In this document: one piece after another, positions 1 through 10,896 of the stretch | Layout of the letters: every line of letters starts with the position of its first letter | Numbering within the stretch: the first letter of the stretch is position 1 | Source: a virus | IMG/VR virus record: IMGVR_UViG_3300025314_000001 | Coordinates: 1-64,000 of that record | DNA: 64,000 bases | Direction: 5' to 3' (one strand) | Program-made: the position numbers and the translations under genes | The notes under the pieces: model-generated | What the model was told of the DNA's origin: nothing | The model's database searches: none | Seen by the model: the letters and a program-made list of their open reading frames with translations, nothing else

Positions 1-1447
1 GGCAGTGGAGCCCACTCGTCGGGCGGCTCGTCGTGCAGGGGTGCTGCAGTCGGAACGGAGAACAGGATGCGGAGGCAGTGGAGCAACAGCTCGGCGTATT
101 CGCCGTCCGTGAGCTCGAAGTCGGAACGGAGAACAGGATGCGGAGGCAGTGGAGCGCGGAAGCGTGAGCCAAGGTCGAGCAGGCGAGACACGTCGGAACG
201 GAGAACAGGATGCGGAGGCAGTGGAGCACGGTCGCCCAGGGCCGCGTCCTGCACCTTGATTACGAGTCGGAACGGAGAACAGGATGCGGAGGCAGTGGAG
301 CGACCGCTCCGCCCGACGGGCCTCGAGCTCCCGGGCGTCGGAACGGAGAACAGGATGCGGAGGCAGTGGAGCACGCAGGTCCCGGCGGTCACCTGGTTCG
401 TCGGCAAGTCGGAACGGAGAACAGGATGCGGAGGCAGTGGAGCCAGGTCGAGCTCGTGGACAGACAGGCCGACGGAGGGGGGGTCGGAACGGAGAACAGG
501 ATGCGGAGGCAGTGGAGCTGTCCTACCATTACCGACAGCTAACGGATGAGCGCCGGTCGGAACGGAGAACAGGATGCGGAGGCAGTGGAGCTGGGTCGAT
601 GACCTCGGGCAGGAGGACCCGTCGGGTTGTCGGAACGGAGAACAGGATGCGGAGGCAGTGGAGCGACACCTACTTTGGACTTTGCCGCCAAGCCGCCGAG
701 GTCGGAACGGAGAACAGGATGCGGAGGCAGTGGAGCGCGTCCTCGCTCGCCGGATTCGAGTTGCCCCGGCGAGTCGGAACGGAGAACAGGATGCGGAGGC
801 AGTGGAGCTGTTCAAGCGGCACGCTCGTTGGCCAGTGTGTCCGCGCGTCGGAACGGAGAACAGGATGCGGAGGCAGTGGAGCAGCACGCTACGGACGATC
901 CATCGGTCATCCAGGATTGGTCGGAACGGAGAACAGGATGCGGAGGCAGTGGAGCCTGAGGGCGTAGCGGTGCCGATTGAGCGTGACCATGCTGGTCGGA
1001 ACGGAGAACAGGATGCGGAGGCAGTGGAGCTGGTCGAGGTCGGCCAACGCATCGGAGGTGCGTTGCAGTCGGAACGGAGAACAGGATGCGGAGGCAGTGG
1101 AGCGATCGACCCGACGTCTTCGACGGCGGGCCCGAAGCAGTCGGAACGGAGAACAGGATGCGGAGGCAGTGGAGCTGGGTCGATGACCTCGGGCAGGAGG
1201 ACCCGTCGGGTTGTCGGAACGGAGAACAGGATGCGGAGGCAGTGGAGCTTGGCGTGCGGTACCGGCAATCTGCCGAGGTCATGTCGGAACGGAGAACAGG
1301 ATGCGGAGGCAGTGGAGCGGTTGGCCGTGCTGATCTAGGATGAGCCCATCCACTGGTCGGAACGGAGAACAGGATGCGGAGGCAGTGGAGCTTGCCCGGG
1401 AGGAAGCGGCCCGTAGGATCGCGATCAGGTCGGAACGGAGAACAGGA
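1..1447 (+). CRISPR. CRISPR array, repeat GTCGGAACGGAGAACAGGATGCGGAGGCAGTGGAGC (36 bp); 19 full repeats, a partial repeat at the window edge and a truncated terminal repeat; 20 spacers of 34-39 bp
   Basis: Identical repeats start at 49,120,192,266,337,408,483,556,629,701,773,847,920,995,1068,1140,1213,1283,1356; truncated copy at 1429-1447. Strand inferred from the truncated (trailer) repeat at the right end. Confidence 0.97.
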
Positions 1448-1879
1448 ATGAAAGCACGCAAATACGAAGGTTCACGAAGCGATTTCATCCGCGAGCAGCC
1501 GGACAGTCTGTCGACGTCCGCAGTCATTGCGGCCGGCAAGCAAGTCGGCCTGAAGATCACGGAAAACCTAGTCCGAATCGTCCGCTACAAGATGAGAAAA
1601 GCGGCCGGTACGGTCACCAAGCGCGGGCGCCGCAAGGGGACCGACGCTATCCAGGTAGCGCCTGCGCAGGCCACCAAAACGCGGCGTGGCCGGCCGCCGA
1701 AGAACCCTCCAGTTGCCACCGACGCCGATCCAACGGGCATGCCATTCGACAAGGTCGGAAGCCGTTTACCTCTACCAGAACTCGCTTCCTCGGCGCGGGA
1801 CGCGGACAGCTTCTGCCGACTCATCACCCGCATCGGTACCACGAAGGCCCGGGCTCTCTTGGACGAGCTAGAGAAGTGA
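1448..1879 (+). CDS. Basic putative DNA-binding protein with AT-hook-like motif
   Basis: ATG at 1448 (MKARKYEGSRSDFIREQP...), RRGRPPK and KRGRRK motifs; the upstream extension of the ORF is only read-through from the array. Confidence 0.7.
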   Translation: MKARKYEGSRSDFIREQPDSLSTSAVIAAGKQVGLKITENLVRIVRYKMRKAAGTVTKRGRRKGTDAIQVAPAQATKTRRGRPPKNPPVATDADPTGMPFDKVGSRLPLPELASSARDADSFCRLITRIGTTKARALLDELEK

Positions 1880-3254: not shown

Positions 3255-6200
3255 ATGAAACTCATATCCACCGGTGACCATCACTGGAACGAGCGCCGTC
3301 GATTCGCCGAATCCGTGCGGATTCACCGCGAGATAGCGGAGCTTGTCGCCGCCGAGAAGCCCGACGTATTCCTATCCGGCGGAGACCTCTACGAAGGGGC
3401 GTCCACTCCGGTGGAGCGGGAGGCGGTAGCCGATTGGGTGACGTCGGTGGCGGAGCATTGCCCGGTCCTGGTGACCAAGGGCAACCACGATCGCCCGGTG
3501 GACTGTCTCCTGCTACGACGTCTTCGGACCCGTTACCCGGTCATCGTCGAAGAAGGCGCGGGGCTACACCGGATCGGTGGAGCTCAGATCGCCGCCATGG
3601 CGTGGCCGACGCGAGAAGGTCTCTTGAAGATGTCGGTCGACACTGAGGTCGACCGGGATGCCCTTACTTCCGAGGCTCTACGTGCTGTTCTGCGCTGGCT
3701 CGGTTCACAGTTCGAAGACCTGCATGGACCGCGCATTCTTCTCGGCCACTTCATGGTCGACGGGTCCGTAACGAGCACCGGTCAAGAGCTCGTCGGCGCC
3801 CCGTGTAGCGTGGCGCTTTCCGACCTGGACCTCGTGGGTGCTCAGGTCGGCCTAATGTCGCACGTCCACAAGTTCCAGCAGTGGGATTCTACCGGGACTC
3901 CCTACCTGTACACTGGGAGCCCCCTGCGGCAGAACTTCGGTGAGCTAGAGGACAAGTCGGTCACCCTCGTCGAATTCGACGGGCCGAAGCTGGTGTCGAT
4001 TCGGCAGGTGCAGACCTCGGCGACCCGGATGCTTCTACTCGACGGGGAATGGTCCGTCGACCATTGGAAGCCAGGACCCGTAGGACCTGGGTGCACTCCG
4101 CTGATGGAGCCTTCCGGAGCCGAGATCCGGTTTCGATACCGGTGCTCATCCGAGCACCGAACCCAGGCAGCGGCGGCCGCGTCCAAGATTCGAGACGACC
4201 TTCTCGCCAATGGCGCCGTCTCGGTGCAGGTCGAGCCGGTGATCGAGGTCAAGAACTCCGCCCGCGCCCCAGAGATTGCGCTGGCGCGCGGAATGGCCGA
4301 GAAGCTCCCGGCCTTTTGGGCCGCCCGGGCTACCACTCCCGAGGAGCCCCGACGGTCCCGCCTGCTCGACCTGGCATGCCAGGTCGAGGCCAATACCCCC
4401 CGCCCGGTTGGGATTTCGACCGGTGCCGCCCTCTTGGACTGGATTAAGCTCCGGGGGATCGGTCCCTTCAAGGGCACGGTGGAAGTCGACTTCCGGAACC
4501 TGCCGCCCGGGATCGTGGCCCTAACGGGTAGGATCGGGGCTGGCAAGACCACCCTGCTGGACTCCTACGCCGCGGCGCTCTACCGGAAGCTCCCGACGTC
4601 CGAGCGGGGGCTCCTGTCCAAAATGGCGGTTTCACGCGACGCGTTCGTGGACGTCGGCATCCAGAACGGGAAGTCTCTGCGTATCGTTCACGCCATCGAC
4701 GCCGGCAAGCAGACCGCCGGCTGGGAGGTGTCGGTATACGACCGCGCGGCGGATGGTTCCGAGTCGCTCACCGGGTCGAGCAAGGTTTCTTCCTTCGACG
4801 ACTGGCGGGATCGGAACATGCTCCCGATGGAGATCTTCCTTGCAGGGCCCTACCAGGCCCAGGGGGCGAACGCGCTGGTCAATGCCCTCGATTCCGAGCG
4901 GGCTTCGATCATCCTGCGGGCTCTCGGGCTCGAGTACTACGAGACCATGGCCGAGACGTTCCGGAAGCGCGCCAGCGCGGCCAAGGAAGAACTCGAGAAG
5001 GCCACGGCCCGCGTGGACGACGAGCGGGCCCGCGGGGGCTACGTCGCTCAGTGCGAGCAAGCTGTGATCGACGAACGCATGGGGCTCGGCCCGTCCCAGT
5101 GGGCACTCCAGGTAGCCCGCGACGCTCTCACGGCTGCCGAGCAGGCGCTCCGGGAGCACTCCAGGGCCCAGGAGGCCTACCTGGAGGCCGTGGCGGCTCG
5201 CGGGGAGCTCGAGTCCAAGATCCGGGACAACCGCGCCCAGCATGCCGACCTGACCGAGCGGCTGACGAACAACCGGAAGCGGCTAGACCAGAAGCCGAAG
5301 ATCTTGGCCGCGGTGAAGCGCTCGGACGAGCTTCGGGCCAGCGTATCCGCTGCCGAGGCGGAGCTGGCCCGGCTCACGGCCGAGCACCAGGGGCTCCAGC
5401 GGGAAGAGTTAGCGCTGCGCCAGGAAGCCGCCGGCAACAAACAATCGTCCGTATCGGCTCAGGCTCGGGCGGACGCCGCCAATCGGCGCCTCGGACGAAA
5501 GCCTGATATTGACGCCGCCGCGGCCAGCATCCCCGGGCTTCGAGCGGCCTGGGAGGAAACATCGAAAGCAGCTGAAGAAGCCGTCCAGATGGTCCGCGGC
5601 GACGTGGCGGCTGCCGAAGCGGAGCTCGATCGGCTCCGTGGGCTGCGTGTAGCTGGGGCGGACGAGCGGATCTTTGGGCTCCGTAGTGGACTCGCTTCCG
5701 TCGTGGAGTGCGAGGGCGAGGCTGAGGACATGGCCGAGCTAGCGGCCTCCGCCCTTGACCGCGATACCATCGCCCTGGACACAGCCGCCGAGCTCCCGTC
5801 CCAAATCACCCGCCAGGCTGCCGAGGTCACCCGTCTGCGCCGGCTCCTGGATACCGTCACCCTGCAGACTGGACAAAAGCGCGACGAAGCCGCTCGGGCG
5901 CTGTCCAAAGCCGAACAGGTTGCGGTCGAGGCAACGCACTTGGAGGCAGCCCAAGCGGAACTCGAAGCCGCGCTCGGTGACCTACAGCGCTACCAGCAGG
6001 CCGAGCGGGCTTGCGTCGCGAAGTCCACTGAGGTCGTACAGCGCCGGACTGCCGCCGGCAGTGAACGCGACACCAATGAGCGAAGGCTCGCTTCGCTCAA
6101 GGAAGAGCTCCAAAAGCTCGCCGCAATCGTCGCCTACAAGGAGCAGGCGGACAAGGCGGAGGCTCGAATCGAACAGCTCGAGAAGGAGCTCAGGCGTGTC

Positions 6201-6962
6201 GACGCCGAGCACACCGAGCTTACCCAAAAACTTGCCCGAGGTCCGGCGGTGGTCCTTCCCCCTCCACCACCGCCGGACGTCTCGGGCCTACGGATTGCCG
6301 TCGGCAACGCCGAAAGCCAAGTCCAGGCCGTGACTACCGCAATCGCCCGGGCCGAGCAACGTCTAGAGCTGGCCCGGCAGAGCGCCCTACGGGTCCTGGA
6401 GCTCGAGTCCGCCCGGGCAGAGCGCTCCGAAGCGCTCTCCGACTGCCAGCGGCTCGCCGAAGACCTCGGCAAAAAAGGCCTCCAGAGCGCCGAGATTGAT
6501 GCCGTTGGCCCCGAGCTCACGGCAGACACGAACGATCTGCTCCACTCCTGCCTCGGGAGCACGTTTACGGTCTCGGTAGAGACGACCAAGAAAGTCGAAC
6601 AGGGAAAGCGGGAGGTCGACGCCCTACCGATCGTCGTCTTCAACTCCGAAGACGGCTACGAAGGGGAGGTCCGGACCTACTCCGGAGGGCAAAAGGCGCT
6701 GATCGGCGAAGCGCTCTCTCTGGCGCTGACTATTCTGTCGTGCCGTCGCGCTGGAATCGATCATGGGTTGACACTCATACGTGATGAACCAACGGCATCG
6801 TTGTCCCCTGAAGATGCGCGAGCATACGTTTCTATGATGCGCGCCGCTTCCGCGATCGTTCATGCACGACATGTTCTCTGCATTACTCACAATCCAGACG
6901 TTGTCGCCTCTTCTGATTGTCGGATACACGTGCACGATGGCACTGCAGAGGTTGTTTTATGA
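3255..6962 (+). CDS. Fused SbcD (Mre11-like metallophosphoesterase) - SbcC (Rad50/SMC-like ABC ATPase) nuclease
   Basis: N-terminal GDHH, GGDLY, GNHD, GHF, SHVH phosphoesterase motifs; Walker A GRIGAGKT; long coiled coil; signature YSGGQ; Walker B IRDEP; H-loop ITH. Confidence 0.92.
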   Translation: MKLISTGDHHWNERRRFAESVRIHREIAELVAAEKPDVFLSGGDLYEGASTPVEREAVADWVTSVAEHCPVLVTKGNHDRPVDCLLLRRLRTRYPVIVEEGAGLHRIGGAQIAAMAWPTREGLLKMSVDTEVDRDALTSEALRAVLRWLGSQFEDLHGPRILLGHFMVDGSVTSTGQELVGAPCSVALSDLDLVGAQVGLMSHVHKFQQWDSTGTPYLYTGSPLRQNFGELEDKSVTLVEFDGPKLVSIRQVQTSATRMLLLDGEWSVDHWKPGPVGPGCTPLMEPSGAEIRFRYRCSSEHRTQAAAAASKIRDDLLANGAVSVQVEPVIEVKNSARAPEIALARGMAEKLPAFWAARATTPEEPRRSRLLDLACQVEANTPRPVGISTGAALLDWIKLRGIGPFKGTVEVDFRNLPPGIVALTGRIGAGKTTLLDSYAAALYRKLPTSERGLLSKMAVSRDAFVDVGIQNGKSLRIVHAIDAGKQTAGWEVSVYDRAADGSESLTGSSKVSSFDDWRDRNMLPMEIFLAGPYQAQGANALVNALDSERASIILRALGLEYYETMAETFRKRASAAKEELEKATARVDDERARGGYVAQCEQAVIDERMGLGPSQWALQVARDALTAAEQALREHSRAQEAYLEAVAARGELESKIRDNRAQHADLTERLTNNRKRLDQKPKILAAVKRSDELRASVSAAEAELARLTAEHQGLQREELALRQEAAGNKQSSVSAQARADAANRRLGRKPDIDAAAASIPGLRAAWEETSKAAEEAVQMVRGDVAAAEAELDRLRGLRVAGADERIFGLRSGLASVVECEGEAEDMAELAASALDRDTIALDTAAELPSQITRQAAEVTRLRRLLDTVTLQTGQKRDEAARALSKAEQVAVEATHLEAAQAELEAALGDLQRYQQAERACVAKSTEVVQRRTAAGSERDTNERRLASLKEELQKLAAIVAYKEQADKAEARIEQLEKELRRVDAEHTELTQKLARGPAVVLPPPPPPDVSGLRIAVGNAESQVQAVTTAIARAEQRLELARQSALRVLELESARAERSEALSDCQRLAEDLGKKGLQSAEIDAVGPELTADTNDLLHSCLGSTFTVSVETTKKVEQGKREVDALPIVVFNSEDGYEGEVRTYSGGQKALIGEALSLALTILSCRRAGIDHGLTLIRDEPTASLSPEDARAYVSMMRAASAIVHARHVLCITHNPDVVASSDCRIHVHDGTAEVVL

Positions 6963-7606: not shown

Positions 7607-8025
7607 CCCAATCGCACATCATCAACTCGGAACTTACGGTCACCGTGCATTCAGACGGCACGGTCACTTGGTCGAGCGCTTCTTGCGCTGGCCTCTCCGA
7701 GGTAGAGCGCCAAATCGTTCGGGAACGCGGTCTAGCAGCCGAGCGTATCGACGAGATGGATCGCATCCTTACGGCGATGCGGAGTTGCTTTCCTAGCGTC
7801 GCAATCTCGGTCCTGAGAAGCATTCTCGATCACGGTTATCCGGGCCATCCCGAACTCAAGTTTATGCACTTCGTTGGGGTAATACGTATCGAACTTGCCC
7901 ACGAGCTGCCGCCTAAAGAATCGGCGCCATACATCGCCACCATCGCCTCAACTCTCGAGGCCGCCGGCTACTCCTGCACCCGTAGCCGGACTCGGGTCAC
8001 GGTGCAGATGAAGTGTGTTCCATGA
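7603..8025 (+). CDS. Hypothetical protein
   Basis: GTGA overlap with the HNH stop; in frame with ORF 7525..8025. Confidence 0.6.
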   Translation: MTQSHIINSELTVTVHSDGTVTWSSASCAGLSEVERQIVRERGLAAERIDEMDRILTAMRSCFPSVAISVLRSILDHGYPGHPELKFMHFVGVIRIELAHELPPKESAPYIATIASTLEAAGYSCTRSRTRVTVQMKCVP

Positions 8026-8267
8026 CGTGCACACCACTTCGCGACAACGAAGGTCGCATCGCCGGATTTGTATGCGGCCGGGGGCGTTTCGGGAACAACT
8101 GCCACCTGTGTAGAAAGACCGCCAAGCTCCAATGCGACTTTTTCCTCCATGCCGAGCGCCGAACCTGCGACAAGTGGCTCTGCAAGAGCTGCGCTGTCCG
8201 AGTCGCACCTAACACCGACTACTGTCCGGGGCATCGCCGGGAGGAGTCGATCGAGAAGTCGAAGTAA
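8022..8267 (+). CDS. Small Cys-rich zinc-finger-like protein
   Basis: CHLC, CDF, CDKWLCKSC, YCPGH; ATGA overlap. Confidence 0.7.
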   Translation: MTCTPLRDNEGRIAGFVCGRGRFGNNCHLCRKTAKLQCDFFLHAERRTCDKWLCKSCAVRVAPNTDYCPGHRREESIEKSK

Positions 8268-10393: not shown

Positions 10394-10896
10394 TACTCGC
10401 CCGGACTGCCGTCGGGTAGTTGCCTGCCAATCATTTTCCAAACCATGCACTTCTCCTGCGGGCAGGCTAGCCGCTGGTCCATGACGTCGACCTTGTCCCG
10501 TAGGGACTCGAACATGGTAGTTTCGGCTAGCGCGTTGTCCGCCAGTTTGGTCACGATCTCCTTCGACCCCAGCGCGATGGTCTTCACCTGGTCGAGGCCG
10601 TTTCGAAGCTTACCGACTTCGTCCCAAAGCAGTTCGTGGTTGCCCAGTACCTTGTCGAGTTTCTCCTGTATGGATTTGAGTGCTTCGTTGAGTCTACTGC
10701 CCGGGATGAGTCCGTCTGGCCCCGGAGCAAGCGGGTCCTGAGGCGGCGAAGTCGCGATCACGGGTTCTGCTGGGATGCTGCTGACACGCTCAAGGTATTG
10801 CTCAGCAGTAAGCGTAAGGTCTCCGGCCAGCGTATCTGGAGCCACCCAATCTTCGCCGGGCGGCGGCGCGCTCAATCGGTCGTCGTTTTCTGACAT
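10393..10896 (-). CDS. Hypothetical coiled-coil protein
   Basis: 167-aa ORF in operon context. Confidence 0.65.
   Translation of the reverse strand: MSENDDRLSAPPPGEDWVAPDTLAGDLTLTAEQYLERVSSIPAEPVIATSPPQDPLAPGPDGLIPGSRLNEALKSIQEKLDKVLGNHELLWDEVGKLRNGLDQVKTIALGSKEIVTKLADNALAETTMFESLRDKVDVMDQRLACPQEKCMVWKMIGRQLPDGSPGE

Follow-up and report, generated by a model that had tools for sequence, protein, structure and literature searches.

The window analysed here is the first 64,000 nucleotides (nt) of IMG/VR virus record IMGVR_UViG_3300025314_000001; window coordinates equal record coordinates. It opens with a CRISPR array, which would be the guide store of a cassette of the phage's own. The cassette has the order effector, partner, leader, array, all on the plus strand, with its genes at the far end of the record and its array running across the junction of the record ends. 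It is probably a self-contained type V system, composed of a nuclease-dead effector of Cas12f1 type, a trans-activating CRISPR RNA (tracrRNA)-like RNA encoded inside the effector gene, and 22 guides that would serve for binding or silencing of DNA. The coordinates of its parts are given in Table 1.

The record is 106,685 bp long and annotated with 'direct terminal repeats'. The terminal overlap of 76 bp begins in the last part of one repeat, continues through a unique spacer, and stops in the first part of the following repeat. The phage genome is circular or terminally redundant, with a length of about 106.6 kb, and its closure falls within the array. Large terminase, portal, and tail sheath, as of a tailed phage, are encoded on the record. 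The terminase has only distant relatives among cultured phages (<32% identity), and the host could therefore not be assigned. The closure through a unique spacer, the phage structural genes, and two further IMG/VR virus records with the cassette place array and effector on a bona fide phage genome.

The array extends from record position 106,441 across the junction to window position 1447 and holds 22 full identical repeats, 22 spacers of 34–39 nt, and a 19-nt truncated last repeat. The 36-nt repeat GTCGGAACGGAGAACAGGATGCGGAGGCAGTGGAGC is present in 19 full copies in the window (49–84 through 1356–1391), which are 100% identical, with a start-to-start spacing of 70–75 nt; window positions 1–11 are the 3' 11 nt of a further repeat. 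Purines make up 27 of its 36 nt (75%). No significant fold was found on either strand, with minimum free energies (MFE) of −4.0 and −1.3 kcal/mol and z-scores of 0.15 and 0.54 against shuffles. The initial annotation of the window had described a homogeneous array of a purine-rich repeat without obvious hairpin, and this description agrees with the 19 window copies. Its interval of 1–1447 covers a real array, but one that is longer by three repeats across the junction (22 in total). It had also placed the trailer on the right and the leader and any effector left of position 1, which is where effector, partner, and a 97-nt leader were found on circular closure. Host chromosome with a class 1 cas operon, which it had considered for the upstream side, is not there; the upstream sequence is the phage type V cassette. 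Spacers 11 and 19 are identical, and their neighbouring spacers differ. Together with the flanking repeats they form an exact 109-nt duplicate block (repeat-spacer-repeat) at window positions 556–664 and 1140–1248, longer than the 76-nt end overlap, that could come from recombination within the array, repeated acquisition, or assembly ambiguity.

Table 1. Positions of the cassette features and of the adjoining gene (window and record share one coordinate system)
Feature	Position	Strand	Remarks
Effector ORF (P0001)	record 103,919–105,646	+	575 aa, Cas12f1-like; beyond the window
tracrRNA-like module	record 103,961–104,044 (L009:15962–16045)	+	84 nt, within effector codons 15–42
Partner ORF (P0002)	record 105,612–106,343	+	243 aa, helical with coiled coil; 35-nt overlap with effector
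Leader	record 106,344–106,440	+	97 nt, upstream of first repeat
First three array repeats	record 106,441, 106,513, 106,585	+	beyond the window
Junction segment	window 1–76 = record 106,610–106,685	+	identical; link between the window and the remaining cassette
CRISPR array, window part	1–1447	+	11-nt part-repeat, 19 full repeats, 20 spacers, truncated terminal repeat
Truncated terminal repeat	1429–1447	+	repeat nt 1–19 only
First gene after array	1448–1879	+	143 aa, very basic, no family; right border of cassette

The effector open reading frame (ORF) gives only weak matches as a single sequence, with E 1e-3 to PF07282, 1e-3 to the TnpB family model NF040570, and 2e-3 to AsCas12f. An exhaustive HMMER search recovered 132 relatives, 18 of them below 1e-30, and a profile of 21 relatives matched Cas12f1 structures in PDB at E 6e-34 to 1e-32. 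The AlphaFold2 (AF2) model of the protein has a mean predicted local distance difference test (pLDDT) score of 82.8, with residues 1–53 disordered. AsCas12f 8j12 was recognized by Foldseek as the best match (E 3.9e-21, template modelling (TM) score 0.69–0.71 by target length), and the top matches were all Cas12f; Cas12g and Cas12k were distant in the profile and fold searches. The fold is that of a miniature TnpB-like protein with WED, REC, RuvC, and zinc-ribbon (TNB) domains, and its size lies within the 400–700 amino acids (aa) of Cas12f. The zinc ribbon has four invariant Cys in the effector alignment, and the C-terminus is complete. By profile and modelled fold, the effector is thus assigned to the Cas12f1 type (AsCas12f). 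A compact class 2 effector, possibly of type V, had been suggested in the initial annotation, and the 575-aa TnpB/Cas12f-like gene corresponds to it; the upstream search proposed there for a RuvC/TnpB-like gene, an anti-repeat, and Cas1 yielded the first two but not Cas1.

No match to the TNB domain (PF07282) was found within the window, and none to Cas1, Cas2, or Cas4 anywhere in the record, in line with the earlier remark that the 62 kb downstream of the array hold no cas gene. In the whole record, PF07282 matched only the effector and a 293-aa TnpB-family ORF at 67,437–68,318 (plus strand; L010:3437–4318), beyond the window, which gives E 4e-28 to OrfB_IS605 and 8e-25 to the TNB domain. The RuvC motifs of this ORF (GIDLG, VESL, DRDHNAA) appear canonical and undamaged, its N-terminus is about 100 residues short, and it is unlinked to the array. 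It may represent the remnant of an IS605-type element, or a TnpB that has been truncated.

Two more IMG/VR records carry effector, partner, and array in this order. In the first (G002, locus L012), the effector has 474 aa and is 26% identical, a 211-aa partner overlaps the effector end, and the 36-nt repeat of its array, present in eight copies, is quite different. That array also ends in a truncated repeat (nt 1–20 kept), and there is no gap between the cassette genes and the array. In the second (G001, locus L019), the effector has 603 aa, the partner is 66% identical, and the array has three repeats with a 3' half that is almost that of the window's repeat. The array lies on the strand of the effector in both, as in the window's genome, where it starts 795 nt past the effector stop codon. 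A scan of viral sequences with a protein pattern from the single effector found no relatives, and a genome scan with effector alignment A3 gave no match. The metagenome scan with an effector pattern found one short contig (L013) with an effector relative 54% identical to the window protein, and a second viral scan (alignment A6) found again only the contig of L012.

Catalytic residues were located by profile alignment to AsCas12f and by alignment of 114 homologues. At the RuvC-I Asp (GIDLG in AsCas12f), the family column has R, P, C, V, or L, and the window protein has C333. The column of the RuvC-II Glu (EDL in AsCas12f) has E, D, A, S, V, or H, with A444 in the window protein, and the third Asp (RuvC-III) is mostly D, here D522. 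The intact D-E-D triad is absent from the window protein, and only D522 is retained. Among the 114 homologues, all but five lack the RuvC-I Asp; the five are canonical Cas12f-like outliers with all three residues (GVDLG...E(D/N)L...NADYNAA), and V(H/R)RG stands at RuvC-I in nearly all of the rest. The clade of the window protein is additionally without the RuvC-II Glu and has A, S, V, H, or D there. Because the RuvC-I Asp and the RuvC-II Glu are replaced, the effector is read as probably nuclease-dead, a feature that the initial annotation did not foresee. Most of the approximately 110 homologues (P0003–P0134), with V(H/R)RG in place of the G(I/V)D of Cas12f, keep the RuvC-II Glu and the RuvC-III Asp. 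They form a large Cas12f-like superfamily in which nuclease function is apparently impaired, and the window's clade would be a further-degraded branch of it.

Telling against this loss of activity, an Asp (D337) stands four residues after the RuvC-I position in the window protein and its two closest relatives, D445 and D522 are kept, and an active site rewired around D337, D445, and D522 is possible. The effector would then be an active nuclease and the cassette a conventional cutting system of V-F-like type, for immunity or competition. P0001, P0003, and the G001 protein indeed share CPG(I/V)DS, with the Asp near the end of RuvC strand 1. D445 is invariant among the nine nearest aligned relatives and D522 among the four closest, and zinc ribbon and C-terminus are wholly intact, in contrast to the truncated dCas12f proteins of PMC13472631. 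However, the next relatives, at 37–40% identity, have C, R, G, N, or A at the D337 position and, where the Glu would stand, V, S, H, D, or A, a drift not expected of a catalytic residue, and nearly the entire superfamily has Arg in place of the RuvC-I Asp. A cutting enzyme is for these reasons regarded as unlikely, and the effector is treated below as probably nuclease-dead.

With a Cas12f-type effector and an unstructured repeat, a tracrRNA was expected, and the initial annotation had mentioned dependence on a tracrRNA or scout RNA as a possibility. The locus has almost no non-coding space. A duplex scan of the whole genome with the full repeat for an anti-repeat gave only scattered, uninformative matches. 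A signal emerged only from a search with the two halves of the repeat in the neighbourhood of the locus, where the 3' half had its best complement on the plus strand in the first codons of the effector. There, the loop CUCCAC(U) of hairpin P1 (CTCCACT, record 103,970–103,976) pairs with repeat nt 29–35, and the 3' tail CCUCUGCAUCC of the module (CCTCTGCATCC, record 104,033–104,043) pairs with repeat nt 17–27, with one G-U pair. At the homologous site of L012, two perfect 10-mers, CCTTCGATCC (8000–8009) and CATCCGCCAA (8054–8063), are complementary to nt 27–36 and 18–27 of the different repeat of that locus, and the module tail of G001 is a perfect complement of the GGATGCAGAGG of its own locus. 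When scored as a two-segment anti-repeat, the L012 site reached 21 of 21 possible and was the unique best of 34,536 positions; the L019 site, with 18, ranked alone at the top of 29,802 positions. The site of the window's genome also scored 18, tied as best with others (5 of 213,018 positions). As judged by complementarity, a tracrRNA-like anti-repeat is present at each locus and is matched to the repeat of that locus.

The module is predicted to fold into three hairpins with MFE of −30 kcal/mol (z −3.47). In comparison with L013, third-codon-position identity at identical residues is 0.78–0.92 in codons 12–46 and 0.2–0.6 in most other windows of the gene. In an alignment of the window's genome, G001, and L013, all 21 base pairs are formed in 100% of the sequences, with four compensatory double changes and none broken; the other variable columns are all in loops or junctions, and slid controls of the alignment gave no compensatory changes. 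A covariance model built from the three sequences found the L012 site at E 4e-8, where the second helix is kept through different distal pairs. Co-folds of module with repeat and spacer gave the same four-way arrangement in L012 and L019. The N-terminal family motif G.L..P.GE....SA coincides with the module stems, GGC GAG pairing with CUC.GCC, and falls in the part of the effector disordered in the AF2 model. In-frame start codons are found only upstream of the module (in all loci) or inside it, and the upstream start of L012 has a good Shine–Dalgarno sequence. No Rfam family matched the locus. The sole match of a DNA motif scan of bacterial genomes, in Blautia celeris (L014), is a chance match inside a GGDEF-type sensor gene. 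About 30 nt past the module lies a further perfect hairpin, GACCCAAG/CTTGGGTC (record 104,080–104,100), with AGAGAC/GTCTCT as its counterpart in L019 (about 5005–5030); in L013 this part is deleted. The hairpin may serve as an additional, optional stem or mark the 3' boundary of the RNA.

The same module could be mainly a cis-regulatory element of the effector mRNA, to which pre-crRNA repeats or the effector bind in the 5' codons and throttle translation as autoregulation, guides being loaded without a separate tracrRNA. It lies in the translated region, pairing would occlude codons 15–42, and the array seems to be co-transcribed with the effector (L012 has no gap, the window's genome has only a 97-nt leader, and no promoter was found). 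In PMC13472631, moreover, dCas12f proteins are described with single guide RNAs and no tracrRNA. The repeat alone, on the other hand, offers the protein no structure to grip. Guide RNAs of Cas12f1 proteins, the closest solved relatives, require a tracrRNA with a split anti-repeat, and the geometry here is the same. A purely cis-regulatory element is considered quite unlikely; the two roles are not mutually exclusive, and the module is taken further as a tracrRNA-like RNA.

All three phage loci have the partner gene in one and the same position, between effector and array. Its product has four close homologues, with 51–66% identity among them. No family was found for it in Pfam, NCBIfam, or PHROG, sigma factors included, where only coiled-coil noise was recorded. 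The AF2 model is of moderate quality (pLDDT 69), helical, with a C-terminal helix of about 60 residues, and gave no fold match in Foldseek against PDB. A protein-language-model search provided a weak lead to DUF3102. The constant position and the conservation would suit a recruiter rather than a roadblock, in which the dead effector brings the partner and another activity (RNA polymerase, recombinase, or nuclease) to guided sites, in the manner of dCas12f with sigma-E or of Cas12k with TnsC in CRISPR-associated transposons. Nuclease-dead Cas12f relatives do act through genetically linked partners (PMC13472631). Against such a role stand a partner without family or fold, for which the DUF3102 lead is all that was obtained, and a cassette without a linked sigma factor, transposase, or recombinase. 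Recruitment as the main function is thus very unlikely, and silencing by the bound complex itself is preferred.

No protospacer was found for any of the spacers in the phage's own genome, in approximately 50,000 GenBank phage records, or in G001 and G002; all matches to GenBank phages were at E ≥ 0.4, and two exact 22-mers from spacers had no match in IMG/VR. As no target was found, no protospacer-adjacent motif (PAM) could be derived. A scan of IMG/VR with the 3' half of the repeat found no array beyond that of the related G001; a match in L024 is a chance one inside a low-GC phage structural gene. The initial annotation had offered an array that hijacks host Cas for inter-phage competition as an alternative, and such hijacking is not needed, the phage having an effector of its own; competition between phages would be a conjecture, no spacer target having been found. 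In a wider form, an orphan array would borrow host Cas, or the dead effector and the tracrRNA-like RNA would act as a decoy that soaks up host crRNAs, as an anti-CRISPR. Roles of this kind have been proposed for mini-arrays in phages and for a dead phage Cas9 that comes with tracrRNA (PMC11656645), and the phage is without adaptation genes. Yet the effector is encoded beside the array, the anti-repeat segments fit the repeat of each locus even where the repeats differ completely, and a pure decoy hardly accounts for a 22-spacer array with unique spacers. The restriction of the repeat 3' half to this phage and G001 in IMG/VR does not favour borrowing either, and we regard this explanation as extremely unlikely.

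Besides the retained aspartates, several points weigh against a self-contained silencing cassette. The spacers are without a recognized protospacer, and a scan for the sigma-70 consensus detected no promoter, none before the array included. The module is translated, so part of its conservation could be peptide constraint; the synonymous-site signal argues otherwise. Its covariation is drawn from three closely related sequences and one distant. We infer from sequence that the module acts as a separate RNA, and likewise its ends and the processing of the CRISPR RNA (crRNA). The identical spacers 11 and 19, with their flanking repeats, could point to assembly ambiguity in the array.

The self-contained cassette, which we still prefer, would work as follows. 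As no promoter was found before the array and no gap exists in L012, the cassette is probably one transcription unit. Guide maturation and loading would depend on a second RNA, since the repeat is without a hairpin, and this RNA would be the 84-nt module. Either as the 5' part of the effector transcript or as a short RNA cleaved from that transcript, the module would pair with the 3' 20 nt of each repeat and give a structured handle followed by the spacer, so that the crRNA would consist of repeat handle and spacer in type V polarity. The truncated terminal repeat, which lacks nearly all of the pairing part (nt 17–27 and 29–35), may bound the last spacer without turning the phage sequence downstream into a guide. 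Like Cas12f, the complex would probably be a dimer; the 22 guides would direct it to complementary DNA, belonging to the host or to rival mobile elements, and it would block transcription or replication there, as Cas12m does on plasmids (PMC11656645). The coiled-coil partner possibly assists, or is recruited as sigma-E is by dCas12f (PMC13472631).

A broader and more tentative proposal, to which we give somewhat less than even confidence, is that these loci represent a phage-borne clade of dead Cas12f with a tracrRNA in the translated 5' end of the effector gene, translation being coupled to guide load, and that the whole is a multi-guide silencer or recruiter moved as a cassette. The same nucleotides would be codons 15–42 and the RNA that pairs with every repeat, and each tracrRNA taken would destroy or block its mRNA; with mRNA 5' ends serving as tracrRNA, synthesis of the effector would be linked to guide load. 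The programmable complex, with its dedicated coiled-coil partner, could then serve to reprogram hosts or to shut rivals down, with no cleavage of DNA. Such a compact guide scaffold of about 84 nt would have a built-in feedback between protein and guide supply.

The cassette looks like a horizontally mobile unit, because only the cassette is common to both phages and its third-position GC is lower. In tblastx of record 103,864–106,609 against L019 of G001, only effector, partner, leader, and array are similar and the flanking genes are not. Third-position GC is 0.57–0.62 in the cassette genes and 0.7–0.85 in most phage genes. The records of G001 and G002 are incomplete and gave no match to the terminase. 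Immediately upstream of the effector, at about 103,830–103,875 of the record, is a sequence that resembles the 3' half of a tRNA, with T-arm GGTTCGAGTCC and an acceptor-like end. ARAGORN found no tRNA in the last 18.7 kb of the record, and the element is not part of the shared cassette, as homology with G001 begins only at about 103,864. Either a signal for RNA processing or an attP-like fragment of a tRNA could explain it. In L012, the motif TTGCAATACATAAAGGGAAGAGC is present at about 7900–7935, just upstream of the effector, and at about 10,575–10,600, just downstream of the array, and looks like a repeated phage promoter or a unit border that flanks the cassette.

On the right side, the ATG of the next ORF, at 1448, directly follows the truncated terminal repeat, and GGAG...A in this repeat gives the ribosome-binding context for it; GGAGAACAGGATG in the full repeats could likewise serve as ribosome-binding site and start codon. 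The 143-aa product carries an RGRP (AT-hook-like) motif. The gene is used as a border marker, and its membership in the system is not shown. Three genes past the array, at window positions 3255–6962 (plus strand), a 1235-aa protein fuses a calcineurin-like phosphoesterase (Mre11/SbcD-like) and an SMC/Rad50-like ATPase, and it is assigned as a single-chain SbcCD-type nuclease.

Among known systems, the cassette resembles V-F1 Cas12f1 (AsCas12f 8j12/7wju, SpCas12f1 9i8y, and Un1Cas12f/Cas14a 7l48/7c7l) in its miniature TnpB-derived effector, fold, and domain order, in the conserved GxGxRGHGxxR segment and CxxC...CxxC zinc ribbon, and in an adjacent array with unstructured repeat and an anti-repeat split in two segments. 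It differs in an effector without the conserved RuvC-I Asp and RuvC-II Glu and with an extra N-terminal domain of about 150 residues, in the partner gene between effector and array, in the lack of cas1, cas2, and cas4, and in being carried by a phage. The tracr-like element is also only about 84 nt long and lies in the effector coding sequence, not in intergenic sequence. Membership in active V-F1 was rejected on the catalytic triad. In the literature searched, no such arrangement of a tracr-like element inside the coding sequence of a Cas12 effector was described; its position would explain why the locus appeared to have no hairpin and no room for a tracrRNA.

Nuclease-dead Cas12f proteins with mutated RuvC that are RNA-guided and act on transcription were described by Hoffmann, Wiegand et al. 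(Nature 2026; PMC13472631). These have about 365 aa, are C-terminally truncated, use a single chimeric guide RNA, are mostly without arrays, have sigma-E/helix-turn-helix partners, and are located on Bacteroidota chromosomes. The phage effector shares with them the Cas12f origin, the mutated RuvC, a linked partner, and the expected RNA-guided DNA binding with an effect on transcription (Foldseek to 9n9c, E 2e-13), and differs in its full length, its 22-spacer array with tracr-like module, a partner of no known family, and its location in phages. It was not classified with the dCas12f–sigma-E group, given the truncation and guide type of that group and its partner, an extracytoplasmic function sigma factor (rpoE) with C-terminal extension that is absent here. 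The same work reports a 'distinct cluster' of CRISPR-associated putative dCas12f in metagenome-assembled genomes, for which guide RNAs were sought in intergenic regions (PMC13472631), and an overlap of the phage clade with this cluster is possible.

The closest functional analogue of the phage cassette is Cas12m (V-M), an interference-defective type V system on mobile elements (plasmids and some prophages) that silences by binding (PMC11656645). The likeness is distant, with a PDB profile match of E 7e-8 over the C-terminal part and a Foldseek TM of 0.37. To our knowledge, Cas12m needs no tracrRNA. Membership was rejected on the distant, partial matches and the presence of the tracr-like module in the phage cassette. 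TldR proteins, some of them phage-encoded, are likewise dead proteins of TnpB lineage that bind DNA under RNA guidance. Their guide is fixed and omega-RNA-like and they lack a CRISPR array, as opposed to the 22 exchangeable guides of the phage cassette, and the effector was not assigned to them.

CasPhi is also phage-borne, and likeness of the repeat start to that of CasPhi-2 had been suggested in the initial annotation. The first 9 nt, GTCGGAACG, are indeed identical (PMC11048056), while the remainder is unlike and the effector is not CasPhi. CasPhi proteins have 700–800 aa and process their own repeat with a 3' hairpin, which is absent here, and the 3' halves of the repeats are unrelated; the profile match to CasPhi-3 (Cas12j) is only at E 0.07, over the zinc ribbon. 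With Cas12b the cassette shares the expected dependence on a tracrRNA. Cas12b has about 1100 aa with RuvC, and the record has no ORF of that size with RuvC, its PF07282 matches having 575 and 293 aa only, and the effector is not Cas12b either; the suggested likeness to Cas12b repeats (GTCGGA...AGTGGCAC) could not be confirmed, as the literature search gave nothing.

If the complex binds without cutting, the cassette would be a natural phage device for CRISPR interference (CRISPRi) with 22 guides, whose targets would reveal what the phage silences, and the effector with its short scaffold would be of practical size for engineered DNA-binding tools. Phage CRISPR systems and nuclease-dead Cas12f are each known; this locus combines both, on at least three phage genomes and always with the partner gene.

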